NCBI GenBank assembly: GCA_011391125.1
Contig: JAABRE010000006.1
Location: forward strand, 33,131 to 97,130
DNA from: Synechococcales cyanobacterium S06
GTDB lineage: Bacteria; Cyanobacteriota; Cyanobacteriia; Cyanobacteriales; JAABRE01
DNA: 64,000 nt
Direction of reading: 5' to 3'
Part shown: positions 3,429-42,052 of the stretch, in pieces
How the letters are laid out: each line of letters begins with the position of its first letter
Position numbering within the stretch: the stretch's first letter is position 1
Program-made: the position numbers and the translations under genes
Notes under the pieces: model-generated
What the model saw: the letters and a program-made list of their open reading frames with translations, nothing else
Databases searched by the model: none
Told to the model about the DNA's origin: nothing

Positions 3429-3636
3429 CTAAAATTTATCCTTTTTTCTAAGCATTATCCATTTGATTAATTATAGTTTATAAAGTTTTGTTACATTTTT
3501 TGTATTTTTGTATAGAAAAGGGTTCTTAATTTCGAGAGAAAGCGGGAAAATTAATCTCAATAGCTACAAAAATGGTTAAGATAAAGGCAATTGACAAATG
3601 ATTTATAATGCGCTTAATCGCAACTAAAAACTAATT

Positions 3637-4857
3637 ATGAATATAACTTCTAAAAATAAACAAATAATAATTCGGCCGGTACAATATCGAGACTTAGAGT
3701 CCATCGCACTTTTAGCCACAAACCATTGTAATAGTCAACAGGAAGCGGAAACTTTAGTACAACAATTGATATCCATTCGTCCCTGGTATCCTCTATTCAA
3801 GTTTTTAAGTTTATTTCCGAATCCGTTGAGACATGATTTTAATGTCTATATTGCGGAACAGAATGAACAATTGCGAGGTTTAATCCAAGTATGTCCCTTT
3901 AATCGTACTCGTAGTACCTGGAAAGTGGAGCGTATTTTAGTTAATAATAATGTGTTTCAAGACACTTTATTAACAGGAAGAAAAAGCGTTGGTACTCAAT
4001 TATTAAGATACTGTTTAGAACACATTTGGGAAGCGAGAACATGGGTATTAGAAGTTAATATTAATGATGACAAAACTTTAGCAATTTATCGGGAAAATGG
4101 CTTTCAACCTTTAGCAGAAATGACCTATTGGGAATTAAAGCCAGAATTGTTAAGTAAATTAGCAGAAACTGAGCCTGATTTACCCAATTTATTAAATGTT
4201 AGTAATGCGGATGCTAACTTATTATACCAGTTAGATTGTGTGGCCATGCCGCCGATTTTAAGACAAGTTTTTGATCGTCATTTGAACGACTTTAAAACTG
4301 GTTTATTCGCCTCTTTAATTAATAAATTAAAACACTGGTTTGGTAAAAGGGAAATTGTGAAGGGATATGTATTTGAACCGCAAAGAAAAGCGGCGATCGG
4401 TTATTATGAATTAGAACTTTGTAAAGATGGAACGACAGCACATAAAGCGCAATTAATAGTGCATCCAGCCTATACTTGGTTATACCCTAAATTAGTGTGT
4501 CAAATGGCACAAACCGTAAACAATTATCCCAATCAAAGCTTAGAATTAGCATCAGCAGACTATCAACCAGAAAGAGAAGAATATTTAACCAAAATAGGCG
4601 CTTATCCTCTTGACAATACTTTATTGATGTCACGTTCAGTCTGGCATAAAATCAGAGAAATTAAGCCATTAGAGGCCTTACAATTATCAGAAGTATTGCA
4701 AGGACTTCAACCAGTTAGAACACCAATACCCAGTCGATTTTCCTGGTTACAAAATTCAGTAAACTTAAAACATATTCATGAAAAAAACGAAGCTAAAAAC
4801 CATACTTCGGGGAAAAAAGAAAATAGCAATTTAACGGATTTTGAAGATCAAAATTAG
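3637..4857 (+). CDS. Cyanobacterial GNAT-family acetyltransferase
   Basis: GTQLLRYC...WVLEVN...ALAIYRENGFQPLA-like GNAT motifs. Confidence 0.8.
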   Translation: MNITSKNKQIIIRPVQYRDLESIALLATNHCNSQQEAETLVQQLISIRPWYPLFKFLSLFPNPLRHDFNVYIAEQNEQLRGLIQVCPFNRTRSTWKVERILVNNNVFQDTLLTGRKSVGTQLLRYCLEHIWEARTWVLEVNINDDKTLAIYRENGFQPLAEMTYWELKPELLSKLAETEPDLPNLLNVSNADANLLYQLDCVAMPPILRQVFDRHLNDFKTGLFASLINKLKHWFGKREIVKGYVFEPQRKAAIGYYELELCKDGTTAHKAQLIVHPAYTWLYPKLVCQMAQTVNNYPNQSLELASADYQPEREEYLTKIGAYPLDNTLLMSRSVWHKIREIKPLEALQLSEVLQGLQPVRTPIPSRFSWLQNSVNLKHIHEKNEAKNHTSGKKENSNLTDFEDQN

Positions 4858-18334: not shown

Positions 18335-21300
18335 ATGCACCATAACGAAACTGTCTCCATGAATCATCAACTGCCAGAAAAACAAGGACTATACGATCCA
18401 CAATTTGAACATGATGCCTGCGGTGTAGGTTTTATTGTTCATCAGAAAGGGCAAAAATCCCATGACATTGTCCAACAAGCACTGACCATCTTAATTAATT
18501 TAGATCACCGGGGAGCTTGTTGTGAACCGAATACCGGTGACGGAGCGGGAATTTTGATGCAAATTCCCCACAAATTCCTGACCAAAGTAGCCGCCGCCGA
18601 AAACATCAGCTTACCAGAAGTAGGCAACTACGGCGTTGGCATGATTTTCAGTTCACCCGATCCCGAAAAACGCCAAAAAGCAAGACAACTTTTTGAGGAA
18701 ATTGTAGCCGAAGAAGGGCAAAAAGTCCTCGGTTGGCGGATAATTCCCACGGACAATTTATCCTTGGGCAAATCAGCAAAAGCGTCAGAACCCTTTATGC
18801 AACAGGTGTTCATTGATCGCCACCCGGAACTGAAAGACGATTTGGCATTTGAACGCAAATTATACATCATCCGAAAAAGGACCCACTTTGAAATTCACCG
18901 CGAAGGAGGAGACAAACACTGGTACGCGGCGAGCATTTCCTGTCGTACCCTAGTCTATAAAGGGATGTTAATGCCCGAACAGGTCGGCAAATATTACCTC
19001 GACTTAAACGATCCTGACATGGAAAGCGCCCTGGCCTTGGTCCATTCGCGTTTTAGCACCAATACTTTCCCCAGTTGGGAACGATCTCACCCCTACCGTT
19101 ACATCGCCCATAACGGTGAAATTAACACCATGCGAGGTAACATCAACTGGATGAATGCGCGTCAGTCGCTTTTTGAGTCAGAATTATTCGGCGATGACCT
19201 CAAAAAAGTGCGCCATGCGATCAACATTAACGGTAGTGACTCAGGTATTTTCGACAACGCCCTGGAATTGTTGACCTTGTCAGGGCGATCGCTCCCCCAC
19301 GCTGTTATGATGATGGTACCCGAACCTTGGTCAGGTCACGAGTCCATGAGTCCAGAGAAAAAAGCCTTCTATAAATACCATTCCTGTTTAATGGAACCAT
19401 GGGACGGACCGGCGAGTATCGCCTTCACCGATGGTACAATCATGGGAGCAGTGCTAGATCGCAACGGTTTACGACCTTCTCGGTATTATGTCACCAAAGA
19501 TGACCTCGTAATTATGGCATCGGAAGCGGGAGTTTTACCCATCGAACCTGAAAGAGTAGCATTCAAAGGTCGTTTACAACCCGGTAGAATGTTCCTAGTT
19601 GACATGAAAGAAGGCCGAATCATCGACGACGAAGAAATTAAGGCCAAAATTGCCACCGAAAAACCCTATCAACAGTGGTTAGACGCTAATTTAGTGGAAT
19701 TAGACAGCTTACCCGACGCTGAAAATGTCCCCAGCAGCGATCTTGCAACCATTACCCAACGTCAAATGGCCTTCGGTTACAGCTTTGAAGAAATCAGAAT
19801 GTTGCTGAGTCCCATGGGTAAAAACGGCGTTGAAGCAACCGGCGCAATGGGTACAGATACCCCATTAGCAGTGCTTTCCAACCGTCCGAAAATCTTGTAC
19901 GATTACTTCCAGCAGCTTTTTGCCCAAGTTACCAACCCGCCGATTGATTCAATCAGGGAAGAAATCATCACTTCCGCCGTCACCACCATTGGTTCTGAAC
20001 ACAATTTATTAGCACCAACCCCCGAAAGTTGCCATTTAATCGAACTAAAAAGCCCAATTCTCAGTAACGCTGACTTAGCCAAAATTAAACAGCAAACTGA
20101 ATTTAGCAATGTTACCCTTGAGATTCTTTTTAACCCCAAAAATGAGGTAAAAGGTCTTGAAGAGGCATTGGATGGTGTTTTTAGCGCTGCTGACAAGGCA
20201 ATTAGCGAGGGATGCAGCCTCATCATTCTGAGCGATCGGGGTATCAGCAAAGACAAAGCACCAATTCCTGCCTTATTGGCAGTTGCTGGCTTACATCACC
20301 ACTTGATTAGAACCGGTACTCGCACCCGTGTTGGCATTGTCCTCGAATCAGGAGAACCTCGGGAAGTCCACCATTGCGCAGTTTTAATCGGTTATGGTTG
20401 TGGCGCAATTAATCCCTATTTGGCCTTTGAAACTTTAGAGCAAATGATTGCCGAAGGTTTATTGGTCGGCGTTGATCACAAAACCGCTTGTAAAAATTAT
20501 ATCAAAGCAGCCACCAAAGGAGTCACCAAAATTGCCTCTAAAATTGGCATTTCTACCCTCCAAAGTTATCGCGGAGCCCAGATTTTTGAGGCGATCGGCC
20601 TGAATAAATCAGTCATTGACAAGTATTTCAGTTGGACTGCTTCGCGGATCGAAGGTTCAGATTTGGCGGTCATTGCCAAGGAAGCGATTTTACGCCATAG
20701 TCATGGTTTCCCCGAACGTCCCACTGCAAATCCTACCTTGGATGTTGGTGGCGAATATCAATGGCGCAAAGATGGCGAAAAACACCTGCTGAGTCCCGAA
20801 GCAATTCACACCTTGCAAAAAGCGGTCCAGTTAGGCGATTATAACTTGTATAAGAAATATGCCAGTGAAATTAACGAGCAGAATCAGCAAACCTTTACCC
20901 TGCGCGGTTTATTGGACTTCAAAAAACGCGAGTCCATTCCTTTAGAGGAAGTTGAACCCCTCGAAGCGATCCTGAAACGCTTTAAAACAGGGGCTATGAG
21001 CTACGGTTCAATTTCTAAGGAGGCCCATGAAGCGTTGGCCATTGCCATGAATCGCATCGGCGGTAAATCCAACACCGGGGAAGGAGGGGAAGACCCCGAA
21101 CGTTACACCTGGACCAACGAAAAAGGGGACTCTAAAAATAGTGCCATCAAACAGGTTGCTTCGGGTCGTTTTGGGGTGACCAGTTTGTACCTTTCCCAAG
21201 CTAAGGAAATTCAGATCAAGATGGCGCAAGGGGCAAAACCCGGCGAAGGTGGTCAACTTCCGGGGTTAAAAGTCTATCCTTGGATTGCCAAGGTTCGTCA

Positions 21301-22933
21301 CTCAACCCCCGGTGTCGGCTTAATTTCACCCCCTCCTCACCACGATATTTATTCCATTGAGGATTTGGCGGAGTTAATCCACGATCTAAAAAATGCCAAT
21401 CGGGAAGCAAGGATCAATGTGAAGTTGGTTTCAGAAGTTGGCGTAGGTACAATTGCGGCCGGTGTAGCCAAAGCTCATGCTGATGTTGTCCTCATTTCTG
21501 GCTTTGACGGAGGAACTGGTGCATCGCCTCAAACTTCAATTAAACACGCAGGATTACCTTGGGAGTTAGGTTTGGCGGAAACTCACCAGACTTTGGTCCT
21601 CAATAATTTGCGTAGTCGGATTGTGGTGGAAACTGACGGACAGTTGAAAACTGGTCGGGATATTGCGATCGCTGCGTTACTCGGAGCGGAAGAATTTGGC
21701 TTCTCCACCGGTCCTCTGGTCACGTTAGGTTGTATTATGATGCGAGTTTGTCATCTAAATACTTGTCCCGTGGGAATTGCGACCCAAAATCCCGATTTAC
21801 GGGCGAAATTCACCGGTGATCCCGAATATACGGTGAATTTCATGAAGTTTATCGCGACGGAATTGCGCGAAATTATGGCCGAGTTGGGTTTCCGTACTTT
21901 AACGGAAATGGTTGGCCGGACCGAGGTTTTGGAAGCGAAAAAAGCGGTGGATCATTGGAAAGCTAAGGGAATTGACCTTTCTAACCTGCTTTATCAACCC
22001 GAAGTCGGTCCTGAAGTCGGTCGCTATTGTCAGATTCCCCAAGACCACGGGTTGGCAAAATCCCTCGACATGACGACTTTGTTAGATTTGTGCAAAGGGG
22101 CGATCGAAAATGGTGAGAAAGTTTCTGCAACTTTGCCCATTACCAATGTTAATCGCGTAGTCGGTACGATTTTGGGTAACGAAATCACCAAAAAACATTG
22201 GGAAGGTTTACCAGAAGACACCGTCCACCTCAAATTTAATGGTAGTGCAGGTCAAAGTTTAGGCGCGTTCGTACCCAAGGGTGTGACCATTGAATTAGAA
22301 GGCGATGCTAATGATTATTTAGGTAAGGGTTTGAGCGGTGGCAAAATCATCGTTTATCCGCCCAAAGTGTCAACTTTTGTCGCTGAGGAAAATATCATTG
22401 CTGGTAATGTTGCCTTTTACGGTGCAACCAGTGGGGAAGCCTACATTCGCGGTGTCGTTGGCGAGCGTTTCTGTGTGCGCAATTCCGGCGTTGCTGCGGT
22501 GGTTGAAGGCGTGGGCGATCATGCTTGCGAATACATGACCGGTGGTAAAGTTGTCGTGTTAGGTAAAACTGGTCGCAACTTTGCTGCGGGAATGAGCGGC
22601 GGTATTGCATACATCCTCGATGAAAACGGCGACTTTGCCCAACATTGTAATACCAGTATGGCGGATTTGGAAACCCTTGATCCCGAGGATATGGACACAG
22701 TGCATACATTAATCAGCAATCACGTCAAATATACGGAAAGTTCAAAAGGTGCGCAAGTATTAGAGAACTGGGAATCAATGTCCGCTAAATTCGTGAAAGT
22801 GATGCCCCGGGATTACAAACGGGTGTTAAACGCGATTAAGGAAGCGTTGGAAGCGGGTTTAAGCGGTGATGACGCACTTAATGCAGCTTTCGAGAAAAAC
22901 GCGGCCGATGTCGCCAGAATTGGTGGTAGCTAG
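18335..22933 (+). CDS. gltB: Glutamate synthase large subunit
   Basis: EHDACGVGF (Cys1), [38 protein letters not shown] (3Fe-4S); start may be the Met at 18359. Confidence 0.97.
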
Positions 22934-22985
22934 GTTCGTTGTTGCGCTTTAGCGCTAACGTAGGTGGGCATTGCCCACCCTACTA
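22933..22985. repeat. REP-like elements (GGTTCGTTGTTGCGCTTTAGCGCT plus GTAGGTGGGCATTGCCCACCCTAC)
   Basis: Short GC-rich hairpins; the same motifs recur elsewhere in the window. Confidence 0.8.
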
Positions 22986-23065
22986 ATCTTTCCCGTTATT
23001 TCGTTATAAAAAACCAATTTGCATTATAATTAAACTTATGTTATTAACTATGAAATATAAAGTCA

Positions 23066-23572
23066 ATGAAAAAAAACACATTAACTGTAATTGGGATTTT
23101 CTTATTAATTTTTGGTGTGCCATTCTTAATAGAATCTTTTAGAGTTCAAAAATTTCTTAATACACTTAATAGAATTTCTGATAAATCTTTTTCTGATCAG
23201 AAATTAACTCAAGAAGAGATAAACAATGTATCAAGCTATTATAATTATTATGGAGGAGATGTTAAGGCAATAAATACAGGTCAATTTTTATGTCAATTAA
23301 TCAAAGAAAGATACCCTTTACCTCCCTTTATTACAGTAAATGAAGTTACTAACCGCGAATATTTAGATGGATATTTAGGTTTTTATGTAATTTCACCTTT
23401 TTATGCTGGTTTTGCTTTTTCTAATGGAGAATTATATAAAAGTCTTAGTTATACTGAAGATTTATTTACAATTGTAGATGATCAAGTTCCTGAAAATTTT
23501 GATGTATTATCTTCAGCTATTTTTGCAGCTTCTGTGGAGGTTTATTGTCCTAAATATAAATTTAATGAATGA
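23066..23572 (+). CDS. Hypothetical membrane-anchored/exported protein (cassette 1)
   Basis: N-terminal hydrophobic segment; very AT-rich. Confidence 0.65.
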   Translation: MKKNTLTVIGIFLLIFGVPFLIESFRVQKFLNTLNRISDKSFSDQKLTQEEINNVSSYYNYYGGDVKAINTGQFLCQLIKERYPLPPFITVNEVTNREYLDGYLGFYVISPFYAGFAFSNGELYKSLSYTEDLFTIVDDQVPENFDVLSSAIFAASVEVYCPKYKFNE

Positions 23573-23610
23573 TATTTTCTAACTAAAGTTGTTAAAATTT
23601 AGCACAGGTT

Positions 23611-23663
23611 AGCTATTTTTAGCTTACAATATTAACAGATAAATAGGGCGATCGCCCTTTCTA
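23611..23663 (+). repeat. Cassette-boundary repeat R1
   Basis: AGCTATTTTTAGCTTACAATATTAACAGATAAATAGGGCGATCGCCCTTTCTA. Confidence 0.95.
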
Positions 23664-23688
23664 ATAAATTTTATTTAAGGAGGTAATT

Positions 23689-23901
23689 ATGACTAATACC
23701 TATACGGCAATTATTCAGGAAGATGGAGATTGGTGGATTGGTTGGATCGAAGAAATTCCGGGGGTAAATTGTCAAGAAAAAACCAGAGAAGAATTATTGA
23801 AAACCTTAAAAATTACCCTAGAAGAAGCTTTAGAATTTAATAGACAAGATGCTATTAATGCAGCAATTGGTAACTATCAAATTGAAAAAATTGCCGTATG
23901 A
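23689..23901 (+). CDS. hicB: HicB family antitoxin (short form)
   Basis: YTAIIQEDGDWWIGWIEEIPGVNCQEKTREEL; AGGAGG RBS. Confidence 0.85.
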   Translation: MTNTYTAIIQEDGDWWIGWIEEIPGVNCQEKTREELLKTLKITLEEALEFNRQDAINAAIGNYQIEKIAV

Positions 23902-24086
23902 AACGTAAAGAATTTATCCAATATTTGCGTTCTCAAGGTTGCGAAATAATTAGGGAAGGAAGTAATCATTCTTGGTGGTGTAATCCAGAATTTAATACTA
24001 GAAGTGCTATTCCTCGACATAATGAAATTAAGGATATTTTGGCTAAAAAAATCTGTAAAGACCTTGGAATTCCACCAATTAAGTAG
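23898..24086 (+). CDS. hicA: HicA family toxin
   Basis: REGSNH...IPRHNEI...KKICKDLGI; ATGA overlap with hicB. Confidence 0.9.
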   Translation: MKRKEFIQYLRSQGCEIIREGSNHSWWCNPEFNTRSAIPRHNEIKDILAKKICKDLGIPPIK

Positions 24087-24114
24087 CTTAAATTAGTTAA
24101 AATTTAGCAAGGGT

Positions 24115-24168
24115 AGCTATTTTTAGTTTACAATATTAACAGATAAATAAGGGCGATCGCCCTTCCTA
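24115..24168 (+). repeat. Cassette-boundary repeat R2
   Basis: AGCTATTTTTAGTTTACAATATTAACAGATAAATAAGGGCGATCGCCCTTCCTA. Confidence 0.95.
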
Positions 24169-24202
24169 CCAAATTTTAAATATATATTATTGTTTAATCA
24201 GA

Positions 24203-25048
24203 ATGCTTACACAAGAAATAATTAATTTAGGTGAACCATATTTTCAGAGTGAAAATTGTTTGATTTATAATTTAGATTGTTTAGAATCAATGCTAAAAAT
24301 GCCGTCTGAATGTATTAATTTAACAGTGACAAGTCCACCTTATAATATTGGTAAAGAATATGAAAATATTTTACCTTTATCGGATTATTTAAAATGGTGT
24401 GAAAAATGGATTCAACAAATTTATAAATTAACCGTTAATGATGGTTCTTTTTGGCTAAATTTAGGTTATTTATCAATTCCAAATTCTGCTAAAGCTATTC
24501 CTATTTCTTATTTACTTTGGGATAAAATTCCTTTTTATTTAATTCAAGAAATTGTCTGGAATTATGGAGCAGGAGTAGCCGCCAAAAACTTTTTTTCTCC
24601 CCGCAATGAGAAGTTTCTTTGGTATGTTAAAAATCAGGAAAATTATACTTTTAATTTAGATGAAATTAGGGATAAAAATGTTAAATATCCTAATCAAAAA
24701 AAGAATGGTAAAATTAAAGTCAATCCTTTAGGAAAAAACCCTACTGATGTTTGGCAAATTCCGAAAGTAACATCAGGAAAAGATAGATCATCTCAAGAAA
24801 GAACCTCTCATCCTGCTCAATTTCCTTTGACAGTAATTGATCGAATTATTAAGGCTTCTTCTCATCCTAATGATCTAATTTTAGACCCCTTTTTAGGATC
24901 AGGAACTACGGCGATCGCGGCTTTAAATTTAAACAGAAAATTTATCGGTTTTGAAATACGTCAAGATTACTGCGATCTTGCAGTTAATAGAATTAATAAT
25001 TTTTGCCAAAATGAAACTATTAAAAAGTCTCAATTATCTTTATTTTAA
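24203..25048 (+). CDS. Beta-class N4-cytosine DNA methyltransferase (M.ScaI-like)
   Basis: TSPPYN, HPAQFP, DPFLGSGTT; convergent with the REase. Confidence 0.88.
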   Translation: MLTQEIINLGEPYFQSENCLIYNLDCLESMLKMPSECINLTVTSPPYNIGKEYENILPLSDYLKWCEKWIQQIYKLTVNDGSFWLNLGYLSIPNSAKAIPISYLLWDKIPFYLIQEIVWNYGAGVAAKNFFSPRNEKFLWYVKNQENYTFNLDEIRDKNVKYPNQKKNGKIKVNPLGKNPTDVWQIPKVTSGKDRSSQERTSHPAQFPLTVIDRIIKASSHPNDLILDPFLGSGTTAIAALNLNRKFIGFEIRQDYCDLAVNRINNFCQNETIKKSQLSLF

Positions 25049-25645
25049 AGGTAATTCTAATAGTTTATAACGTTGGACTTCCGGACTTAATCTAGCCTGT
25101 TGTCCAGTTTGAGCTTTTTGACCTAACCAGTCAAACTCATCTAACCAACCAAAACGAATTTTATTAATTTTAGGTAGTTCATTTTCAATTTTTGAGTTAA
25201 TTTTAGGAAAATTTACTGCTAAATAATAACCTGATTTATTTTTTTTTGTTTGTTGTCCAGTAGTGCTTTTTTGTGCGTAACTACGATTACCATAAATACT
25301 ACCAGAACTAGAAGAAGTTTTTAATTCTATTGAAAAATAATCATTAGGAATATAAACAATATCTTTGTCATAATCTTTGTCTTCTTTTCGCCATAATTCA
25401 GGATATCTCGTCGCAAATTCTAAAGGGATAAGTTCATGTAATAATGTTCCTAAAAATTGAGGACGAGGGAATAAATCTATACCTATTTTATACTTTCTAC
25501 TTGTAATTTCAGAGGTAAATAATTCTGCCCACATTTTATTAACTATTTCCACTATTTCTTCCGTATTAATAGGGTGTTGGGCAATTAATTCTTTTGTTTT
25601 TGTTTCCCAATTTTCTGTTGATATTCCCTGATATGGTGAAATCAT
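25040..25645 (-). CDS. ScaI-family type II restriction endonuclease
   Basis: SPY...W..KT.ELI..HP, PQ..G..LHELIP, KDIVY...SIELKTSS (PD-ExK), GNRSYAQ, RFGWLD, TGQQARL recalled as the ScaI family pattern. Confidence 0.75.
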   Translation of the reverse strand: MISPYQGISTENWETKTKELIAQHPINTEEIVEIVNKMWAELFTSEITSRKYKIGIDLFPRPQFLGTLLHELIPLEFATRYPELWRKEDKDYDKDIVYIPNDYFSIELKTSSSSGSIYGNRSYAQKSTTGQQTKKNKSGYYLAVNFPKINSKIENELPKINKIRFGWLDEFDWLGQKAQTGQQARLSPEVQRYKLLELPLK

Positions 25646-25867
25646 TTATTCAATTCCTTTAAATAATTCACTTAATGACATTTCCAAAGTGGTAGCAATC
25701 TTTAAAAGATTCAAAAAAGCAACGTTTCTTTCACCTCTTTCAATTCCACCAATGTAATTACGATGTAGTCCACATAATTCGGCAAATTCCTCTTGAGATA
25801 ACCCTTTTGCCATTCTGAGACTACGCACTTTTACACCTAATTTTTTTAACTCTGAATTTTGTTTCAC
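25646..25867 (-). CDS. R-M controller (C) protein, XRE HTH
   Basis: [27 protein letters not shown]; directly upstream of and abutting the REase. Confidence 0.85.
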
Positions 25868-25917
25868 ATCCCCACTATATGGGATCAGAGTTCTTTTTCC
25901 TACACACTATGAGTGTG
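25868..25917 (-). promoter_or_regulatory. C-box operator(s)
   Basis: Palindrome CACACT-ATG-AGTGTG (25903-25917; ACTCATAGT core on the - strand) and a second ATCCC-N8-GGGAT at 25868-25885 abutting the GTG start. Confidence 0.7.
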
Positions 25918-25943
25918 ATCCGTGTTTTTGTGTTAAACTAATT

Positions 25944-27053
25944 TTGTTATTGATTTATTTAAGTAAAATGCAAAAAAATAATAATTTGTTAAATAAACAC
26001 CCTTATAAAATCCTTAAAAATCCCCAATCAACTAACTTTAATGTCATGGAATTATTTGCCGGTTGTGGGGGAATGGCCTTGGGTTTTGAAAATGCAGGTC
26101 TTCAAACTAAATTATTAGTAGAAATTGATAAAACCTGTTCTGAAACTTTGGCAAAAAATCGCCCTCATTGGCATATTATTAATCAGGATGTTACCCAATT
26201 AAAGTTTAGTGAATATAATAGTCAAGTTGACATTGTCGCTGGTGGTTTTCCTTGTCAAGCTTTTAGTCATGCTGGGGAAAGAAAGGGTTTTTTAGACACT
26301 AGAGGAACTTTATTTTTTGAGTTTGCTAGATGTGTAAAGGAAGTAAACCCCAAAATGGTGATCGCCGAAAATGTGCGCGGTTTAATTACCCATAAAAATG
26401 GCGAAACTTTAGCGATAATTTTAAATACTTTAGATGAATTGGGTTATAATTGTAGTTATAAATTACTTAATGCGAGTTATTTAGATGTTCCTCAAAAAAG
26501 AGAGCGAATTTTTATTATTGCCACCCAAAAAGACCTTAATATTAAACCAATTTTTCCGACTGAAAATTCCTATATTATTACTTTAAAAGAAGCCTTAAAA
26601 GACTGTCCAAAATCACAGGGAGTTAGCTATAATCAGAGGAAAAAAGAGATTATGGACTTAGTACCCGAAGGAGGAAATTGGCGTAATTTACCCGAAGAAA
26701 TCCAAAAAGAATATATGAAAAATAGTTACTATCAAGGAGGAGGAAGAACGGGTTTTGCGAAAAGATTATCATACAATGAACCTAGTTTAACCGTTACTTG
26801 TTCTCCTGCTCAAACACAAACTGAAAGATGTCATCCCACGGAAACCAGACCTTTAACAGTAAGGGAATATGCGAGAATTCAAACATTTCCTGATAGTTGG
26901 GAATTTATGGGTTCATTAACTGGCCAATATAAACAAATTGGTAATGCAGTTCCTGTTAATATGGCCTATCATATTGGTAAATGTTTAATAGAAATGTTAA
27001 CAGGAAAATCAGAAAGTTATCGCCAAGAATTAAGGCAATTATCTTTATTTTAA
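25944..27053 (+). CDS. C5-cytosine DNA methyltransferase (Sau96I/Eco47II-like, possibly GGNCC)
   Basis: FAGCGG, GGFPCQ, ENV, QKRERIF, QIGNAVP; the TRD TCSPAQ.QTERCHP resembles GGNCC enzymes; start probably ATG 25968. Confidence 0.9.
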   Translation: MLLIYLSKMQKNNNLLNKHPYKILKNPQSTNFNVMELFAGCGGMALGFENAGLQTKLLVEIDKTCSETLAKNRPHWHIINQDVTQLKFSEYNSQVDIVAGGFPCQAFSHAGERKGFLDTRGTLFFEFARCVKEVNPKMVIAENVRGLITHKNGETLAIILNTLDELGYNCSYKLLNASYLDVPQKRERIFIIATQKDLNIKPIFPTENSYIITLKEALKDCPKSQGVSYNQRKKEIMDLVPEGGNWRNLPEEIQKEYMKNSYYQGGGRTGFAKRLSYNEPSLTVTCSPAQTQTERCHPTETRPLTVREYARIQTFPDSWEFMGSLTGQYKQIGNAVPVNMAYHIGKCLIEMLTGKSESYRQELRQLSLF

Positions 27054-27069
27054 TCTTGTAATTATACTC

Positions 27070-27123
27070 TATTTTTAGCTTAGAATATTAACAAATAAGT
27101 AGGGCGATCGCTTTTTCTATTTG
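27070..27123 (+). repeat. Cassette-boundary repeat R3
   Basis: TATTTTTAGCTTAGAATATTAACAAATAAGTAGGGCGATCGCTTTTTCTATTTG. Confidence 0.9.
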
Positions 27124-27230
27124 CTTTCGAGAAAAACGCTGCTGACGTAGCCAGAATTGGTGGTAGTTAGGTTCGTTGTTGCGCTAAAGCGCTAAGGTAG
27201 GTTGGCAGTGCAACGGCCTACCAACTAATT
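27123..27230 (+). repeat. Duplicate of the gltB 3' end ([15 protein letters not shown]) plus its downstream REP-like sequence
   Basis: 27123-27170 matches 22886-22933 with 5 substitutions, all at synonymous third positions. Confidence 0.95.
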
Positions 27231-27310
27231 ATTAACAAAAATTGTTTAATATACAGATTTATTGTAAAATATAACAAGGTTAAATTTAAACAAAAAATAA
27301 AGTAAAAATT

Positions 27311-27892
27311 ATGGCAACTAAACTTTTACCTGCAAAAGTACAGAAAGAAATTGCTAGACTCTCTGAAAAATCTCAAAATACCATTACCCGTGACGACCTA
27401 GAAAAATTAGTTTTACTTGTCTATCCTAGTAAATCTGAACAGAAATCTAACCATAATATTAAACTATCTATTTCAGAAAAACCTTTAAAACTTGCGGAAA
27501 TTAAAGAAGCAATATATAAACGTTTTGATGTTAAAAATACTGACGAATTAAAGAAATCAGGCCAATTTCAAATGGCCACTGATGGACTGGGAAAATTAAA
27601 TTTTAATAACAAAGAAACATGGGAAATGTTATATCGTAAATGGATTGATATTCTTCCCGATGAAACCAATCAAGAAGGTTATGGTTGTATTAATGGTATT
27701 GACATTTTTAAATATTCTCGACCTTGGCAAGTTTTTAATTTAGACGGAAAAACTGCCACTAAAGAAGATGTCAAAAAAGCTTTTTATCAATTATCTAAAA
27801 TTTATCATCCTGATAATCAAGAAACAGGCGATCGAAAAATCTTTGAACGTCTTAATAAAATGTATGATAGTTTAATTGCAGGAATATCTTAA
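27311..27892 (+). CDS. Protein with C-terminal J domain
   Basis: DVKKAFYQLSKIYHPD...FERLNKMYDSL. Confidence 0.8.
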   Translation: MATKLLPAKVQKEIARLSEKSQNTITRDDLEKLVLLVYPSKSEQKSNHNIKLSISEKPLKLAEIKEAIYKRFDVKNTDELKKSGQFQMATDGLGKLNFNNKETWEMLYRKWIDILPDETNQEGYGCINGIDIFKYSRPWQVFNLDGKTATKEDVKKAFYQLSKIYHPDNQETGDRKIFERLNKMYDSLIAGIS

Positions 27893-27973
27893 GGCGATCG
27901 AAAAATCTTTGATAGTTTTAATCCAATTTAATTTAAAATAGTCTAAATTGCTAATTACGGGAGTGTCTTAGAA

Positions 27974-29243
27974 ATGACAAATTCAAACATAATTAACAGA
28001 GAAGATTTTTTTTATTACTGAAGAATACGTTTTAAAAGGTCTGGAAATAAATAAGGAAGTTTTAGAAATAATTATAGCCACCATAGAAAAAGATGAAAGT
28101 TTTATCTGGGAAGAAAATGTCCATTTCAGATATGTTCCTAAAAAGAATAAAACTAGACTTTTTGCTAGACAAGGTCTCATTGTGATGGGAGAATTTTTTG
28201 ATACTTCTTTTGATACTTCTGAAGAATTAACAAAATTAAAAACACTACTACAAAAAAAAGACAACGAGATAGAATTAATTAAAATTGACCATGAAATTAT
28301 TGAGAATACTTTAAAGGTTTTAGGTAATAATTCAGATAAAATCTTAGTTAAAGGAAATCGCCATTGGATGAATTTTAGCGATGTCCGCAAACTCTTTAAA
28401 ACCACTACACCTCGTTTAAATCAGGCCTTTGAAGATATTGCCCGTTCTGATCTACCATTATTTATAGAAGAAGATTTTGATGACATAGAAGATCAACGTT
28501 ATTATTCTTTTTCAGGTTTAGAAAGAATTGGTAATGAATTATCTAATACCTTAACTAGAAAATCTAAAGCTTTATTTGTTAACAGAGCCAAGAAAAAATC
28601 TCCTGACCAAATACAAAAAGTCTATAGTCCTATTCTTCCCTCAGAACAGAAGATTACAAGTGCTATGACACAAGCAAGAACACAACAAAATAAGGTCTGT
28701 CAAGTTACAGGGGAATCTGATCCAAAATTAGCAGTACATCATCTTTATGATAAAAGTACCTATCCTGAATTAGCTATAGATCAAGATAATCTTATCCTGA
28801 TTAAAGAGCCAATACACCATAATTTTCATGCTTGGAATGAAGGTTTTGATAAACCCTGTACTATAAATGATTTTATCTCTTATATCAAAACAATGCAACC
28901 TGAATTTTATGAGCATATTGCATTTGAACTTGATAAACGTCAACTAGCTTTACAAACAAAATTAAAATACCGTTCTAAATTCAAACCATTAGAACCAGCT
29001 TCAACCAAATCCATTGATACAGAATCACCTAAAAATAAGATAACTTCTCAGGAATCAATTAATAGAAATATTCTTGGCAAAACTACTTTTGCAAATATCA
29101 ATAATGAACAAGTAGAAGGTAAAATCTTAGCAATTTCTACTACATACGGTTCAGATCAAAAACCAATTATTTCTCTTTGTTTTCAAAAAAAGGAACATAA
29201 ATATGGAATTTGGTTGCCTTCTTCAGCTTTTATTAATCAATAG
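27974..29243 (+). CDS. HNH-like endonuclease domain protein; 5' part frameshifted at a T8 run
   Basis: CQVTG...LAVHHL...NLILI...H.NFH; the frame of ORF 28182 is open back to ~28008, and ATG 27974 joins it if T8 (28006-28013) is read as T7. Confidence 0.65.
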
Positions 29244-29280
29244 CTGATTAGAGCGGTTTAAAATGCTAAGAATTGCGATC

Positions 29281-29360
29281 TATTTTTAGCTTACAATATT
29301 AACAGATAAATAGGGCGATCCCGCCGGAATCCGCGCGGAGCAGGTGCGCCCTTTCTAGTT
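29281..29360 (+). repeat. Cassette-boundary repeat R4 with a 27-bp insertion inside HIP1
   Basis: ...TAGGGCGATC[CCGCCGGAATCCGCGCGGAGCAGGTGC]GCCCTTTCTAGTT. Confidence 0.92.
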
Positions 29361-29391
29361 AGTAAATATTTGAGGAAAAAATTTTATTTCT

Positions 29392-29832
29392 ATGCCATCA
29401 AGAGACATTATTCATAATATTGTTAAACAAGCAATCATTAAAGATGGCTGGAAAATAACCGATGATCCCTATACTATTTCTTATGGGGAAAGATTTTTAT
29501 TTATTGATTTGGGAGGTCAGCAAATTAAGGAAAATTCTCAAGGAGAGTTTATTGGAGCAGAAAAAGAAAATCGAAAAATTGCCATTGAAATTAAAGATTT
29601 TCGCAGTAAATCAGATATTTCTGCTTTACAACAGGCCATCGGCCAATATACTCTTTATCAACTTCTTTTAAAGGAAATTGAACCTGATAGAAATATTTAT
29701 TTGGCCATCACAAATTTTACTTATGACAATATTTTTTCTGAACCTATTGGTCAATTAGTTATTAATAAACTTCCCTTAAAATTAATTGTTGTAAATTTAG
29801 CAAAAATGGAGGTTAAATTATGGATTCATTAA
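29392..29832 (+). CDS. xisH: XisH family protein
   Basis: RD..H..VK.A.IKDGW.ITDDP, IDLG, KIAIEIK.F, AIGQY. Confidence 0.9.
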   Translation: MPSRDIIHNIVKQAIIKDGWKITDDPYTISYGERFLFIDLGGQQIKENSQGEFIGAEKENRKIAIEIKDFRSKSDISALQQAIGQYTLYQLLLKEIEPDRNIYLAITNFTYDNIFSEPIGQLVINKLPLKLIVVNLAKMEVKLWIH

Positions 29833-30146
29833 CAAATAAACGCCAAATAATTAAAGAAGTTCTTAATTATTATTCTCAATTTAAACCTTCCCATGGTGAT
29901 ATTCGTTTAGAAACTATTTTTGACGAAAATCAAGATAGATATGCTTTAATGCAAATAGGATGGGACAGGGGAAAAAGAATTAGGGGAAATTTAATTTATT
30001 TAGCTATTCGTGACGGAAAAATTTGGCTAGAATACGATGGAATAGAACAAGGAATTATTCAAGATTTAATTAGTCAAGGTATCCCCGAAAATGAGATTAT
30101 TTTAGGTTTTTTAACTGATGTTTCTTCTGTATCCTTAAGTGCATAA
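29820..30146 (+). CDS. xisI: XisI family protein
   Basis: FDE..DRY....GW, DGKIWLEYDGIE.GI..DL...GIP...I.LGF. Confidence 0.9.
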   Translation: MDSLTNKRQIIKEVLNYYSQFKPSHGDIRLETIFDENQDRYALMQIGWDRGKRIRGNLIYLAIRDGKIWLEYDGIEQGIIQDLISQGIPENEIILGFLTDVSSVSLSA

Positions 30147-30156
30147 AAACGCCATC

Positions 30157-30212
30157 TTTTTTAGCTTATAATATACATATATCGGGGCGATCGATCGCCC
30201 TTTCTATCTGTT
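30157..30212 (+). repeat. Cassette-boundary repeat R5 (degenerate left half, GCGATCGATCGC apex)
   Basis: TTTTTTAGCTTATAATAT...GGGGCGATCGATCGCCCTTTCTATCTGTT. Confidence 0.85.
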
Positions 30213-30229
30213 TTAATTTAATTAAAATA

Positions 30230-30574
30230 ATGATTTTTCCCCCTCGACCTATTAATAATGAACAAAAATTCATAACCACTCAAAATCGCCTTGATTTTCT
30301 CTTGGATAAACAGGAATTAAATCAAGATGAACGAGACTATCTTAAAATTTTAGGGATGTTAATTTACGATTATGAGGAAAAATATGAGACTATTCCTAAT
30401 CTTGAAGATATGGAAATAATTAGCTCACTTTTGACCGATTATAATTTAACAATTCAAGATTTATTACCAATTTTTGTAGAGGAATCAACTATTATTAATA
30501 TTTCGGAAGGAAAAAGAAAAATAACGTCAGAAGAAAAAGCAAAATTAGAGATTATGATTAATAATTTATTATGA
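30230..30574 (+). CDS. HigA-like antitoxin (orphan, probably N-terminally truncated)
   Basis: FPPRPI.NE...DYL.ILGMLI.DYEE plus a C-terminal HTH; no toxin upstream. Confidence 0.7.
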   Translation: MIFPPRPINNEQKFITTQNRLDFLLDKQELNQDERDYLKILGMLIYDYEEKYETIPNLEDMEIISSLLTDYNLTIQDLLPIFVEESTIINISEGKRKITSEEKAKLEIMINNLL

Positions 30575-31638
30575 TTAATAATGGTGAATATAAAATTCTT
30601 AAAAATCCCCAATCAACTAACTTTAATGTCATGGAATTATTTGCCGGTTGTGGGGGAATGGCCTTGGGTTTTGAAAATGCAGGTCTTCAAACTAAATTAT
30701 TAGTAGAAATTGATAAAACCTGTTCTGAAACTTTGGCAAAAAATCGCCCTCATTGGCATATTATTAATCAGGATGTTACCCAATTAAAGTTTAGTGAATA
30801 TAATAGTCAAGTTGACATTGTCGCTGGTGGTTTTCCTTGTCAAGCTTTTAGTCATGCTGGGGAAAGAAAGGGTTTTTTAGACACCAGAGGAACGTTATTT
30901 TTTGAGTTTGCTAGATGTGTAAAGGAAGTAAACCCCAAAATTGCGATCGCCGAAAATGTGCGCGGTTTAATTACCCATAAAAATAGCGAAACTTTAGCGA
31001 TAATTTTAAATACTTTAGCTGAACTTGGGTTATCATTATAGTTATAAATTACTTAATGCAAGCTATTTAGATGTTCCTCAAAAAAGAGAGCGAATTTTTA
31101 TTATTGCAACCAGAAAAGACCTTAATATTAAACCAATTTTTCCGACCGAAAATTCCTATATTATTACTTTAAAAGAAGCTTTAAAAGACTGTCCAAAATC
31201 ACAGGGAGTTAGCTATAATCAGCGTAAAAAAGAGATAATGGACTTAGTCCCAGAAGGAGGAAATTGGCGTAATTTACCCGAAGAAATCCAAAAAGAATAT
31301 ATGAAAAATAGTTACTATCAAGAAGGAGGAAGAACGGGTTTTGCGAAAAGATTATCATACCATGAACCTAGTTTAACAGTTACTTGTTCTCCTGCTCAAA
31401 CACAAACAGAAAGATGTCATCCCGAAGAAACCAGACCTTTAACAGTAAGGGAATATGCGAGAATTCAAACATTCCCAGATGATTGGGAATTTATGGGTTC
31501 ATTAACTGGCCAATATAAACAAATTGGTAATGCAGTTCCTGTTAATATGGCCTATCATATTGGTAAATGTTTAATAGAAATGTTAACAGGAAAATCAGAA
31601 AGTTATCGCCAATAATTAAGGCAATTATCTTTATTTTA
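30571..31638 (+). pseudogene. Disrupted second copy of the C5 methyltransferase at 25944
   Basis: Near-identical to ~26004-27053; +1 insertion near 31024 (GAACTTGGG vs GAATTGGG) and a GAA>TAA stop at 31613. Confidence 0.9.
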
Positions 31639-31651
31639 ATCTTGTAATTAT

Positions 31652-31678
31652 AGCTTATTTTTCACTTAAAATATTAAG
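31652..31678 (+). repeat. Cassette-boundary repeat R6 (left-half remnant)
   Basis: AGCTTATTTTTCACTTAAAATATTAAG, at the same position after the MTase copy as R3. Confidence 0.55.
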
Positions 31679-31727
31679 TAAAGTTGAGATTATTTAAAGA
31701 TAAATTGACTTAGTTTAAACAAAAAAA

Positions 31728-32513
31728 ATGAAAACTGACCACATTTTTTATCGCATTTTTAAAGATTTACCCACAACTTTTTTTGAGTTATGGGAAAACT
31801 CACCCCAACAGGTGAACAATTACCGTTTTGATTCGGTAGAATTGAAACAAACAGCCTTTAGAATTGATGGAGTATTTTTACCCGACGACATTGACAATCC
31901 TATTTATTTTACGGAGGTACAATTTCAAAAAGATTGTACTATTTATGCTCGTTTATTTTCTGAAATATTCACTTATATTAGAGAAAATGATCCTAAAATA
32001 CGTTGGCGAGCTATGATTATTTTTAGAAGTCGTAGCATTGAACCAACAATTAGAGAAAGAGAATCCGTAGAACCATTGTTAGATTGTCCCTTTGTAAAGC
32101 GAATTTATTTGAATGAATTAACAGTAGATGAAAATACTCCTTTAGGAGTGCAAATTATTCACCTAATTGTTACTAAGAAAAAGCAGTTTTTAGAGACATC
32201 AAACAAGTTAATTCAGCAAGTAAAACAACAATTTACCGATGAACAAACTCGGTTAGAAATGTTAAATTTGTTAGAAACAATTATCTTAACTAAATTACCC
32301 AAAATGAGTCGCAAGGAGTTAGAGAATATGTTTGGAGTTAATGATTTAAGAAAAACCCGTTTTGCTCAAGAATTACTTGAGGAAGGGGAACAAGAAGCGA
32401 AAATTAAAATAATTCCTCGATTATTAGGAAAAGGATTTTCCCTTGAAGAAATTGCTGCAATTGTCGAATTAGATATTAAACAAGTGCGACAAGTTATTGC
32501 TAACTTGAATTAA
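31728..32513 (+). CDS. Rpn family / DUF2887 PD-(D/E)xK protein
   Basis: MKTDHIFYRIF, FDSVELKQTAFRIDGVF, EVQFQKD. Confidence 0.88.
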   Translation: MKTDHIFYRIFKDLPTTFFELWENSPQQVNNYRFDSVELKQTAFRIDGVFLPDDIDNPIYFTEVQFQKDCTIYARLFSEIFTYIRENDPKIRWRAMIIFRSRSIEPTIRERESVEPLLDCPFVKRIYLNELTVDENTPLGVQIIHLIVTKKKQFLETSNKLIQQVKQQFTDEQTRLEMLNLLETIILTKLPKMSRKELENMFGVNDLRKTRFAQELLEEGEQEAKIKIIPRLLGKGFSLEEIAAIVELDIKQVRQVIANLN

Positions 32514-32634
32514 TTTTAGGGTGGGTAATACCCACCTTTTTGTTATTAATTAATATTTGAACATAAAAGAAGAGGAATCAATGAATTTTATTAATAGATT
32601 ATATAATTGGTTTTTAAGTGGTTTAAAAAGAAGT

Positions 32635-32690
32635 TATTTTTAGCTTACAATATTAACAGGTAAATCGGGCGATCGCCCTTTCTATCTGTT
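32635..32690 (+). repeat. Cassette-boundary repeat R7 (most complete hairpin)
   Basis: TATTTTTAGCTTACAATATTAACAGGTAAATCGGGCGATCGCCCTTTCTATCTGTT. Confidence 0.95.
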
Positions 32691-32723
32691 ATAATCTTCT
32701 CAAATAAAACTTAGTTTTTTGAT

Positions 32724-32954
32724 ATGGAAACCTTAGAAATTCGCCAACAAATTAATGAATATCTTGAGCAACTTTCCCCTGATAAATTATTAGTTGCTGC
32801 TGATTTTTTAGCTTATTTAAGCCAAAAAGAATCTGATGATCCTACCCTCGAATTATTGAAAATTGACGGGATTGAAGAAGCTTATCAAAATGCGAAAAAA
32901 AATATTATACAAGGTAAGGTGATCTCAGTTGACCAACTTAAACGAAAATATTAA
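32724..32954 (+). CDS. Putative antitoxin
   Basis: Small acidic ORF upstream of and overlapping the RelE gene. Confidence 0.7.
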   Translation: METLEIRQQINEYLEQLSPDKLLVAADFLAYLSQKESDDPTLELLKIDGIEEAYQNAKKNIIQGKVISVDQLKRKY

Positions 32955-33213
32955 TTATCTGGTTCTTATTAGTATTGATGCTCAACCGTTTTTTGAGTCG
33001 GCTGCTCCATCTTTACAAAAGAAATTAGATCGCTGTTTTGACCGTTTAAAAATTGACCCTTATAATTATCCTAATATTAAACCATTAAAAGGTGTTTTTT
33101 CTGGTAGTTATCGTTATCGTGTTGGTGATTATCGAGTTATTTATGAAATAGATGATAATTTAAAACAAGTGACAATTATTTTGATTGCACATCGAAATAA
33201 AATTTATGAATAG
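32929..33213 (+). CDS. relE: RelE/ParE family toxin
   Basis: IKPLKG...YRYRVGDYRVIYEIDD...I.HRNKIY. Confidence 0.9.
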   Translation: MTNLNENINYLVLISIDAQPFFESAAPSLQKKLDRCFDRLKIDPYNYPNIKPLKGVFSGSYRYRVGDYRVIYEIDDNLKQVTIILIAHRNKIYE

Positions 33214-33225
33214 TTAAAATAGATA

Positions 33226-33285
33226 AGCTATTTTTAGCTTACAACATTAACAAATAAATAGGAGTTATATTTCTTTCTATCTGTT
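33226..33285 (+). repeat. Cassette-boundary repeat R8 (HIP1 apex replaced)
   Basis: AGCTATTTTTAGCTTACAACATTAACAAATAAATAGGAGTTATATTTCTTTCTATCTGTT. Confidence 0.88.
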
Positions 33286-33337
33286 ACAATCTTAATGAAA
33301 GTTAACCTTAATTTTTTAGTATGAAAAAATTAAAAAT

Positions 33338-33826
33338 ATGGAATGGAAAAATGTCTGTGAAAATAAAGATTTGCGTAATTTACCCTTTAAAATTGAGTTA
33401 AATAAATGGGGTCAAATTGTCATGAGTCCAGCTAAAATTAAACATTCTTTTTATCAAGGTTTGATTGCAGAATTATTAAATTCTTTCTTAAAAACAGGTT
33501 TTGCTTTTCCTGAATGTGCGATCGATACTAATGATAATACGAAAGTTGCTGATGTGGTTTGGTGTTCAGATCAAAGATTAACAATAATTGAAAATGAAAC
33601 TTCTGCTTCCATTGCTCCTGAAATTTGTATAGAAATTATTTCTTCTAGTAATACTTTTGAAGAAATGGAAACTAAAAAAAATTTGTATTTTGAAGTACAA
33701 GCTCAAGAATTTTGGCTTTGTGACCAGGAGGGAAATATTACATTTTATAACCCAGAAGGTGAATTAGAACAATCAAAGTTAGTTCCCCAATTTCCTAAGA
33801 AAATTAAACAAAGGGTTATTTCTTAA
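33338..33826 (+). CDS. Uma2 family endonuclease
   Basis: G.IVMSP, VADVVW, APEICIEIIS, EFWLCD. Confidence 0.88.
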   Translation: MEWKNVCENKDLRNLPFKIELNKWGQIVMSPAKIKHSFYQGLIAELLNSFLKTGFAFPECAIDTNDNTKVADVVWCSDQRLTIIENETSASIAPEICIEIISSSNTFEEMETKKNLYFEVQAQEFWLCDQEGNITFYNPEGELEQSKLVPQFPKKIKQRVIS

Positions 33827-33889
33827 TCTGTGTAGATAATGTTATCAATCTATTAAAAAAAGACTTGAAAAATTACAGGGATAAATACA

Positions 33890-34171
33890 ATAAATCATAA
33901 ATATTTTGGTAGTAATTTTGATGATTTTTTAGCGGAAGAATGCTTATTAGAAAAGATAGAAGTAACGGCCATTAAAAAAGTTATTGCCTATCAAATAGAA
34001 CAAGAAATTAAACAAAAAGGTTGGACAAAAACAGAAATGGCAAAAAAAATGAACACCAGTCGTTTATTATGAAATCTTTTATTAGACCCAAACAATGCTT
34101 CGGTTAATTTACAAACTATTACCAAAGCTGTCTTTATTTTATGCAAAAAATTGAAAATTGAACTGGTTTAA
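33890..34171 (+). pseudogene. XRE-family antitoxin pseudogene
   Basis: Manual translation (I)NHKYFGSNFDDFLAEE...AIKKVIAYQI...TKTEMAKKMNTSRLL*NLLLDPNNASVNLQT...KKLKIELV*; ATA in place of a start codon, internal TGA at 34070. Confidence 0.8.
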
Positions 34172-34178
34172 ACCAAGT

Positions 34179-34228
34179 TATTTTTAGCTTACAATAGTAA
34201 CAAATAACTATGGCGATCGATCGCCTTT
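34179..34228 (+). repeat. Cassette-boundary repeat R9 (last copy)
   Basis: TATTTTTAGCTTACAATAGTAACAAATAACTATGGCGATCGATCGCCTTT. Confidence 0.85.
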
Positions 34229-34264
34229 ATTAACAAAAAAAATAACCAATTACTAATTATTACC

Positions 34265-41830: not shown

Positions 41831-42052
41831 AAGCTTTTTTAATGTAAATAATGTATATATGGGGAATATGTCTGATTCTCCTATTGTTACTTTAGCATAG
41901 CAAACTATGCTTCGGAATCATAAAACATGATTATAGTTACTAACAGTTAGCTGAGAGCTGATTAATAGTTGATTGCTGATTGTAATAGCTAAAATCAGAA
42001 ATTAATTGTGAATTATAGTAATTTCAATTAAGATTAGAACAGTAGAAAAATA

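Follow-up and report, generated by a model that had tools for sequence, protein, structure and literature searches.

A duplicated 3' end of gltB beside a cassette-like island in a Synechococcales cyanobacterium, most likely left behind by recombination between related strains

The 3' end of gltB occurs twice in the window analyzed in the present study (the whole stretch of 64,000 nucleotides from Synechococcales cyanobacterium S06), once at the gene itself and once at a start-to-start distance of 4237 nt, where it is fused to a copy of a private repeat family, R. This duplication is most likely a recombination scar between related strains and is largely of a known kind. The genome to which the window belongs consists of 168 contigs, amounts to 4.8 Mb, is 99.98% complete, and originates from metagenome-type samples. 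The features at the two gene ends are as follows.

18335 to 22933, plus strand: gltB, glutamate synthase large subunit, 1532 aa (open reading frame; Pfam GATase_2, Glu_syn_central, Glu_synthase, and GXGXG)
22886 to 22987, plus strand: tail1, the proximal end, comprising the final 15 gltB codons with the stop codon (22886-22933) followed by REP-like hairpins (22934-22987)
27123 to 27229, plus strand: tail2, the distal end, untranslated, comprising a coding-like part (27123-27170) followed by a diverged REP-like tail

Rereading and translation of 22886-22933 and 27123-27170 gave the identical 15-residue peptide, as the initial annotation had stated, and the five differences between them (GCG/GCT, GCC/GCT, GAT/GAC, GTC/GTA, and AGC/AGT at 22903, 22906, 22909, 22912, and 22930) are all at third positions and all synonymous. 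In a simulation of five random substitutions in 45 coding bases, the probability of five synonymous changes out of five was 3.6e-4 and that of five third-position changes was 0.0025. The gapless match between the tails is 89% over 89 nt (22886-22974 versus 27123-27211) and, with one 5-nt indel, homology reaches ACTAAT (approximately 22987 and 27229); the REP-like tail is thus also duplicated, which had likewise been noted. The 4.8-Mb genome contains these two copies of the tail and no third, and the longest identical runs between them are 17-18 nt.

The last Pfam domain of gltB stops at residue 1452, and a C-terminal 13-residue motif is conserved in relatives. The private residues K and A are common to both tails, and the tail sequence was absent from all 25 other genomes with a readable gltB C-terminus, which indicates that both tails come from one narrow clade. 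Since an in-frame TAA is present upstream of tail2 at 27096-27098 and is followed by no ATG, GTG, or TTG, tail2 is not translated; the functional 3' end of gltB is tail1, and tail2 is a dead fragment. The synonymous-only pattern and the shared K and A provide good support for the earlier proposal that both tails were formerly real gltB ends, which appear to have diverged under purifying selection in two lineages; they would differ only synonymously because the gltB alleles of these lineages are approximately 10% apart.

Two potential guides to the resident tail were rejected. The codon usage of gltB prefers tail1 over tail2 by just 0.78 log10 units, which is too weak, and the distance to the sister species G001 is equal, with 11 of 48 positions differing from the G001 tail in each case. 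The first REP-like hairpin after gltB (22934-22957, GTTCGTTGTTGCGCTTTAGCGCTA) is the genome-wide consensus, with 31 exact copies and 320 within 2 mismatches, and further copies lie at 42051 and 62478 in the window; the tail2 hairpin, the loop of which is inverted from TTT to AAA, is a variant unique in the genome. The sequence GCGATCGC is also abundant in the genome, which, together with its XisH/XisI and DUF2887 genes, suggests a cyanobacterium.

The distal tail is joined to the third copy of family R, the members of which are given below.

23611 to 34234, plus strand: family R, eight full-length copies (R1 to R8) at 23611, 24115, 27068, 29278, 30157, 32632, 33226, and 34176, with the core CTATTTTTAGCTTACAATATTAACAGATAAATAGGGCGATCGCCCTTTCTATCTGTTAYAAT
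27068 to 27123, plus strand: R3, intact from CTATTTTTAGC to TATTTG and without the TTAYAAT end, G27123 being common to tail2 (nhmmer E 4.8e-15)
approximately 31653 to 31682: Rx, a ninth, truncated copy

Upstream of G22886 and G27123, the two sequences are unrelated. R3 follows its family through G27123, reading TTTCTATTTG where the copies at 30157, 32632, and 33226 read TTTCTATCTG^TTA (a caret marks a point of crossover or breakage), and it ends in TATTTG where the same three copies read TATCTG^TT. The joint is placed within one shared G because tail homology starts and the R3 family match stops at G27123, and alignment bore out the initial annotation on this point. This G is the base that would pair with the C of AAC in the R hairpin.

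The R3-tail2 joint is a real molecule. A de Bruijn graph cannot make a 1-nt overlap, and a contig from sample X1 (an independent assembly, k=31) crosses the joint, spanning 27037-29309 (R3, tail2, and unit B, described below) with 0 differences and extending from the joint by 86 nt in one direction and 2187 nt in the other. Another X1 contig covers 21182-23642 (gltB, tail1, and the first cassette), also with 0 differences. The depths in X1 were 6.7-7.2 for the gltB-tail1 and R3-tail2 contigs, and the contig of the methyltransferase described below had a depth of 15 versus approximately 7.3, which is consistent with two copies. X1 is probably the source sample of the genome and, hence, is not independent material. 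Joints in X1-X4 with sides of 22-29 nt were not trusted. In X4, cover was almost nil over 28717-29317 and 29919-30519, with unit A and the distal array being covered, and missing cover was not counted as evidence; X4 contigs have loose ends at 27056, 27289, and 28254. The X1 contig that crosses the joint matches its neighbors in depth.

The R family is restricted to this array. A genome-wide nhmmer search returned eight matches at E <= 1.3e-10, all in the array, with the next best at E 0.008; the core 22-mer with 3 mismatches allowed gave seven matches with <=1 mismatch in the array, and in 400 other genomes of the order it gave isolated matches with 2-3 mismatches, at the level of a reversed-pattern control. 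Rfam yielded nothing relevant. A looser R pattern applied across genome contigs matched at least 119 stretches; among the 80 listed, there were single matches each, nearly all in non-cyanobacterial AT-rich genomes, and the search was uninformative. All eight full copies lie on the plus strand at a cassette-sized spacing of 504-3354 nt. R3 is one of several broken copies, with breaks elsewhere falling after TTTCTA (R1 and R2), CCTTTA (R8 and the copy on metagenome contig L189, described below), and GTAAA (Rx). We rejected the idea that Rx is broken at AA^C and mirrors R3, as with a 3-nt gap it goes on to GTAAA, and also that of half-R sites straight after each tail, for which 127-492 of 500 shuffles scored equally well.

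Some further features of R were observed. A GC-rich stretch of 27 nt (CCGCCGGAATCCGCGCGGAGCAGGTGC) is inserted into the central loop of R4 at 29320-29350, and all other copies lack it. The 3' part of R at 32680-32740 and 33274-33337 reads TGTTATAAT and TGTTACAAT, respectively, resembling an extended -10, and a conserved leader of approximately 35 nt then leads to the next ATG; the central GGGCGATCGCCC-TTTCT resembles a terminator. From these motifs, R may serve as a terminator-promoter module between cassettes. The extended -10 TGTTATAAT in R6 is a by-eye reading, and a promoter scan gave 58 versus 58.1 in shuffles, i.e., not above chance.

The locus as a whole is built of two units in tandem, which are homologous at their ends and unrelated in between. 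Unit 1 comprises tail1, the unit A genes, C5 methyltransferase A, a spacer, and R3, while unit 2 comprises tail2, the unit B genes, C5 methyltransferase B, a spacer, and Rx.

22988 to 27067: unit A cargo (Pfam; repeats)
23066 to 23572: 168-aa open reading frame, unit A
23689 to 24086: HicB/HicA, unit A, between R1 and R2 (Pfam)
24203 to 25048, plus strand: methyltransferase M of a ScaI-type RM system, unit A, after R2 (Pfam)
25040 to 25645, minus strand: endonuclease R of the ScaI-type RM system, unit A (Pfam)
25646 to 25867, minus strand: C protein of the ScaI-type RM system, unit A (Pfam)
25944 to 27053: C5 DNA methyltransferase, copy A, followed by a 14-nt spacer (Pfam)
27230 to 31682: unit B cargo (Pfam; PHROGs)
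27311 to 27892: DnaJ-domain protein, unit B
28182 to 29243: 353-aa open reading frame with a weak HNH likeness, unit B, before R4
29392 to 30146: XisH/XisI, unit B, between R4 and R5
after R5: 114-aa open reading frame, unit B
30571 to 31615: C5 methyltransferase, copy B, disrupted by a 1-nt insertion and followed by the same spacer and Rx

The Pfam matches of the unit A RM region are RE_ScaI, N6_N4_Mtase, HTH_3, and DNA_methylase. Further gene sets in the array are those for DUF2887, ParE, and Uma2, and a DUF305 gene ends the array in the window. The initial annotation correctly described a block duplicated at the gltB end and missed the duplication of methyltransferase, spacer, and repeat at the other end. 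This second duplication also extends over the spacer, all 14 nt of which are identical, and the beginning of R (25944-27091 and 30530-31677); 26004-27091 and 30589-31677 are 96.4% identical over 1090 columns, with a spacing of 4585/4586. The frameshift in copy B results from a single inserted C where copy A has position 26438. Substitutions distinguish the copies at 33 sites, of which 17 are synonymous and 16 are not, and the differences cluster in 26300-26900, the middle being 5% apart and the flanking 491 nt having 3 differences (0.6%). Identical runs of 287 nt (26013-26299) and 40 nt (27028-27067) are shared. As direct repeats, the methyltransferase copies could recombine homologously and delete 4.6 kb. 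Since both ends are duplicated, either of the tandem units could be the incomer, and the earlier view of 22886-27122 as the incoming unit does not follow.

No recombinase was found among the open reading frames of 22988-31700 or on the 99.7-kb contig C135, and Pfam and PHROGs searches of unit B returned no replication or integrase gene. The genome has two tyrosine and three serine recombinase matches, all on other contigs.

We regard it as somewhat probable that the locus arose through one non-homologous joint, with a 1-nt overlap (G), between a copy of R and gltB, combined with homologous exchange between strains, and that it represents a scar of recombination in a variable island. The region after gltB would be a hypervariable cassette-like island of RM, toxin-antitoxin (TA), and small genes punctuated by R, in which the R3-tail2 junction would be the single novel joint, made between an R copy and codon -16 of gltB. 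We infer the joining mechanism and the order of events, for which two routes may be envisaged: a tandem duplication or insertion-duplication followed by differentiation through exchange with other strains, or a one-step import from a related strain, with a homology anchor on one side (gltB, or the methyltransferase with the distal array) and an illegitimate join on the other. In either case, the tail attached to gltB would stay in use and the distal tail would become a dead fragment. The two-ended duplication favors this explanation because the insertion of an unrelated foreign block would not predict a duplicated methyltransferase end, whereas tandem or insertion-duplication predicts homologous ends with R3-tail2 as one novel joint. 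The breakage of R copies at several points is as expected from repeated illegitimate events. The lack of a recombinase gene on the contig and of an integron integrase in the genome counts in its favor as well. With longest identical runs of 17-18 nt, the tails are unlikely to have undergone an internal homologous crossover, which favors a junction-specific or illegitimate event, in line with what the initial annotation had supposed.

Several points weigh against this explanation: a 1-nt overlap is short for such a joint; the joint falls on the one R base that matches the integron crossover G^TT; the 3 differences per 491 nt at the methyltransferase ends versus 5% in the middle are not predicted by a simple duplication in which the left part of one unit was later replaced, and need an extra conversion patch; strains with an empty site, a single unit, or a gltB-tail2 arrangement were not recovered; and integron integrases are present in the sister species.

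Material from other strains and relatives bears on the role of exchange. In X4, the sample of a second study, gltB, tail1, and the first cassette are contiguous and identical over 22736-23653, and tail1 and its cassettes thus occur together naturally elsewhere too. The X4 contig over 22390-22959 has 8 differences, of which the 7 listed are all in 22642-22735, with 6 of these 7 at third positions. X4 also shows 7 differences in 31 nt in 20209-20239, besides the 7 in 94 nt in 22642-22735; the differences are mostly at third positions, and the flanks are identical. These clusters look like imported recombination patches, and on such comparisons gltB reads as a mosaic between strains, with local divergence akin to that between tail1 and tail2. 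The metagenome contig L189 (2065 nt) has the same methyltransferase end, a different spacer, an R copy, the DUF305 gene (83-87% to that of the window), and an internally deleted DUF2887 gene. Its right-hand border is common with that of the window array, its array is much shorter, and the array therefore varies between organisms.

In the same-genus genome G001, the closest of those compared, the gltB end is 80% identical and has a different 15-residue tail, and there is no synteny with the window downstream of gltB. In G001 (L039), gltB is directly followed by an RM pair (a C5 methyltransferase and a BsaWI-like endonuclease) and then by aspS; RM genes may repeatedly have settled in the 3' flank of gltB in the genus. 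A metagenome scan with a fully degenerate back-translation of 14 tail residues gave 0 matches and no conspecific contig. Neither an empty site, nor a single unit, nor a gltB-tail2 arrangement was recovered from the genomes searched and the metagenome scan.

A process of this type has parallels. Homology-facilitated illegitimate recombination in transformable bacteria uses a homology anchor on one side and a non-homologous join on the other, and places donor and recipient sequences in series in one step. The gltB locus resembles it in the serial donor/recipient layout and differs in that 1 nt is shared here; the joints of this process usually share 3-10 nt, relative to which 1 nt is short.

Prophage e14 (and phage 21), inserted in icd of E. 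coli K-12, brings with it a new 3' end for this gene. The displaced end persists beyond the insert as icdC, a C-terminal pseudogene fragment, and most of the differences between the two ends are synonymous (PMC13626634), a pattern resembling that of tail1 and tail2. The gltB locus is like the e14 type in having direct repeats that include a gene 3' end with a non-functional distal copy. In contrast, e14 encodes its own integrase and excises site-specifically, whereas the gltB block and its contig are without a recombinase; the far joint at gltB is inside a local repeat, and the far side (methyltransferase and repeat) is duplicated as well.

Furuta et al. 2010 described RM inserts of <20 kb with direct repeats of >30 bp and no mobility gene, including an H. 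influenzae case in which the repeat overlaps a gene 3' end and a listed Microcystis case (PMC2853133). In gene content, insert length, and repeat length, the gltB insert agrees with such RM insertions with long target duplication (22988-27122, 4135 nt, ScaI-type R/M/C and C5 methyltransferase, repeats of approximately 102-107 nt). It is unlike the published inserts in that it also contains non-RM cassettes and three R repeats. The published repeat pairs that were examined are approximately 93-100% alike (PMC2853133), whereas the gltB tails are 89% alike, and all the differences in their coding part are synonymous, which suggests an origin in two lineages.

Among the other explanations, the one that survives best is that R represents an attC-like site for an integron-type tyrosine recombinase no longer present in this genome, and that a multi-cassette circle formed between R (G^TT) and the G^CT of gltB carried a spare gltB end and was re-inserted site-specifically at gltB or R3. 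We consider this unlikely. The position of the joint agrees with it, this being the G expected to pair with the C of AAC, and a random break in a repeat of approximately 60 nt falls on the G^TT base with P ~0.02; that one or more of five broken copies would do so has P ~0.08. The single orientation of the array (8/8 full copies), its spacing, and its TA/RM cargo are typical of chromosomal cassette arrays, and arrays without an integrase (CALIN) are common (PMC4889954). The TAAC...GTTA ends of R6 and R7 also occur in attC hairpins beside intI in the sister species and three other genomes, and the integron integrase model TIGR02249 scored above its cut-off in 38 of the 401 genomes of the order, including G001, which has three matches, two of them over the cut-off and one of these intact. 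The short identical runs in the tails, by disfavoring a homologous crossover there, also count in its favor. As a side observation, TIGR02249 matches in genus g50 (G062, G106, G141, G174, G190, G206, and G222) include several with a single in-frame TAG and a near-full score, which could be a shared pseudogene or read-through.

On the other hand, TIGR02249 had 0 matches at E <= 0.001 in the six frames of the 99.98% complete genome of the window, and the only two matches of PF00589 are on contigs C74 and C117, not C135. A crude AAC...GTT stem scan found two of the nine R copies (R6 and R7), with a span of 36-37 nt; four attC hairpins adjacent to intI in cyanobacteria span 77-80 nt. The folding of R copies is weak, with z-scores of -3.1 to +1.0, and a z of -1.9 was also recorded for the best copy; R3, at z +1.03, folds no better than its shuffles, and the outer stem is present in the minimum-energy fold of R6, partly in that of R7, and in R4 in the centroid structure only. 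Approximately 25 conserved nt of R sit 5' of and outside the hairpin. Moreover, the repeat unit does not end at the supposed crossover: R6 and R7 (32623-32740 versus 33214-33337) are 76.6% alike over 124 columns, and their likeness continues for approximately 45 nt after G^TT, ending only where unrelated genes begin at their start codons. R1, R2, R8, the L189 copy, and Rx break at other positions, and the integron-type joint is a single instance. The gltB site, G^CT, fits the loose GNT that is sufficient for integron secondary sites (PMC10127599); it does not fit the GWT consensus that a preprint derived from more than 5e5 genomic insertions (10.1101/2022.09.11.507474). Compared with CALIN and with attC x attG recombination (PMC4889954 and PMC10127599), the R array is similar in its orientation, TA/RM cargo, TAAC...GTTA ends, and joint at the G of G^TT, and differs in the lack of an integrase, its short and mostly incomplete hairpin, its conservation past the crossover, its other breakpoints, and GCT instead of GWT. 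The integron-type crossover that the initial annotation had pinned to one base is not supported on these grounds.

We do not place this possibility lower because of an acrB-type locus in G001. On contig C161 (L202, 300-4760), there are four copies of the final ~190 nt of an AcrB-family gene, and the G001 genome has no others. Three modules lie between these copies: a ParE-like TA pair, an intact intI accompanied by a cassette and attC-family hairpins, and another two open reading frames. A GGCGATCGCC site within the gene marks the start of three of the four copies, and T2, the fourth, starts approximately 10 nt further in; an attC-type hairpin at 3608-3685 ends in ...CGATCG^TT exactly at the start of a copied acrB 3' flank. 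This locus shows that the duplication of a gene end round inserted modules recurs in the genus, once beside an integron. The fuller proposal would be that the R array is a degenerate integron-like array, the integrase of which was lost here and kept in the sister species, that G^CT, 48 nt before the gltB stop, is a secondary or attachment site, and that circles with a spare gltB end move between strains without inactivating the gene, the acrB-type copies of G001 being a second case; we hold this to be rather improbable.

An assembly artifact appears very unlikely. The methyltransferase copies may have been mis-phased, such that the chromosome would read gltB, tail1, unit A, methyltransferase, Rx, and DUF2887, and unit B would be a separate 4.6-kb circle or belong to another strain. 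The phasing of the two copies is less safe than the joint because of their identical runs of 287 and 40 nt, because Logan contigs break at these copies and are chimeric between them, and because the X2 and X4 contig over 31613 has the copy-A base beside Rx; the metagenome-type origin of the 168-contig assembly adds to this concern. However, the R3-tail2 joint would be real under mis-phasing too, given the X1 contig that crosses it, the depth of unit B in X1 equals that of the chromosome (7.2-7.3 versus 6.7-7.4), unit B is without a replication or integrase gene of its own, and the assembler placed both methyltransferase copies in one 99.7-kb contig. An in-place duplication in one lineage (an RM unit inserted with a long target duplication), followed by drift and without foreign DNA, is hardly credible even though the insert has the layout of such units, as an untranslated tail2 would drift at all codon positions and not accumulate five synonymous changes out of five, and as the tails are 10% apart versus 0.6% at the methyltransferase ends.

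Under the explanation that we prefer, a joint between R and gltB together with exchange between strains, the locus would be a clean, datable scar and would illustrate how a defense-gene island beside a housekeeping gene is rebuilt by strain exchange with the gene end kept intact. The 96%-identical methyltransferase copies can mislead short-read assembly and are a ready substrate for the loss of 4.6 kb. If the integron-like alternative were true, the locus would reveal cassette traffic through a site in an essential-type gene, with the gene end carried along, and a short, unusual class of attC in cyanobacteria, and it would bear on the origin of chromosomal cassette arrays without an integrase.
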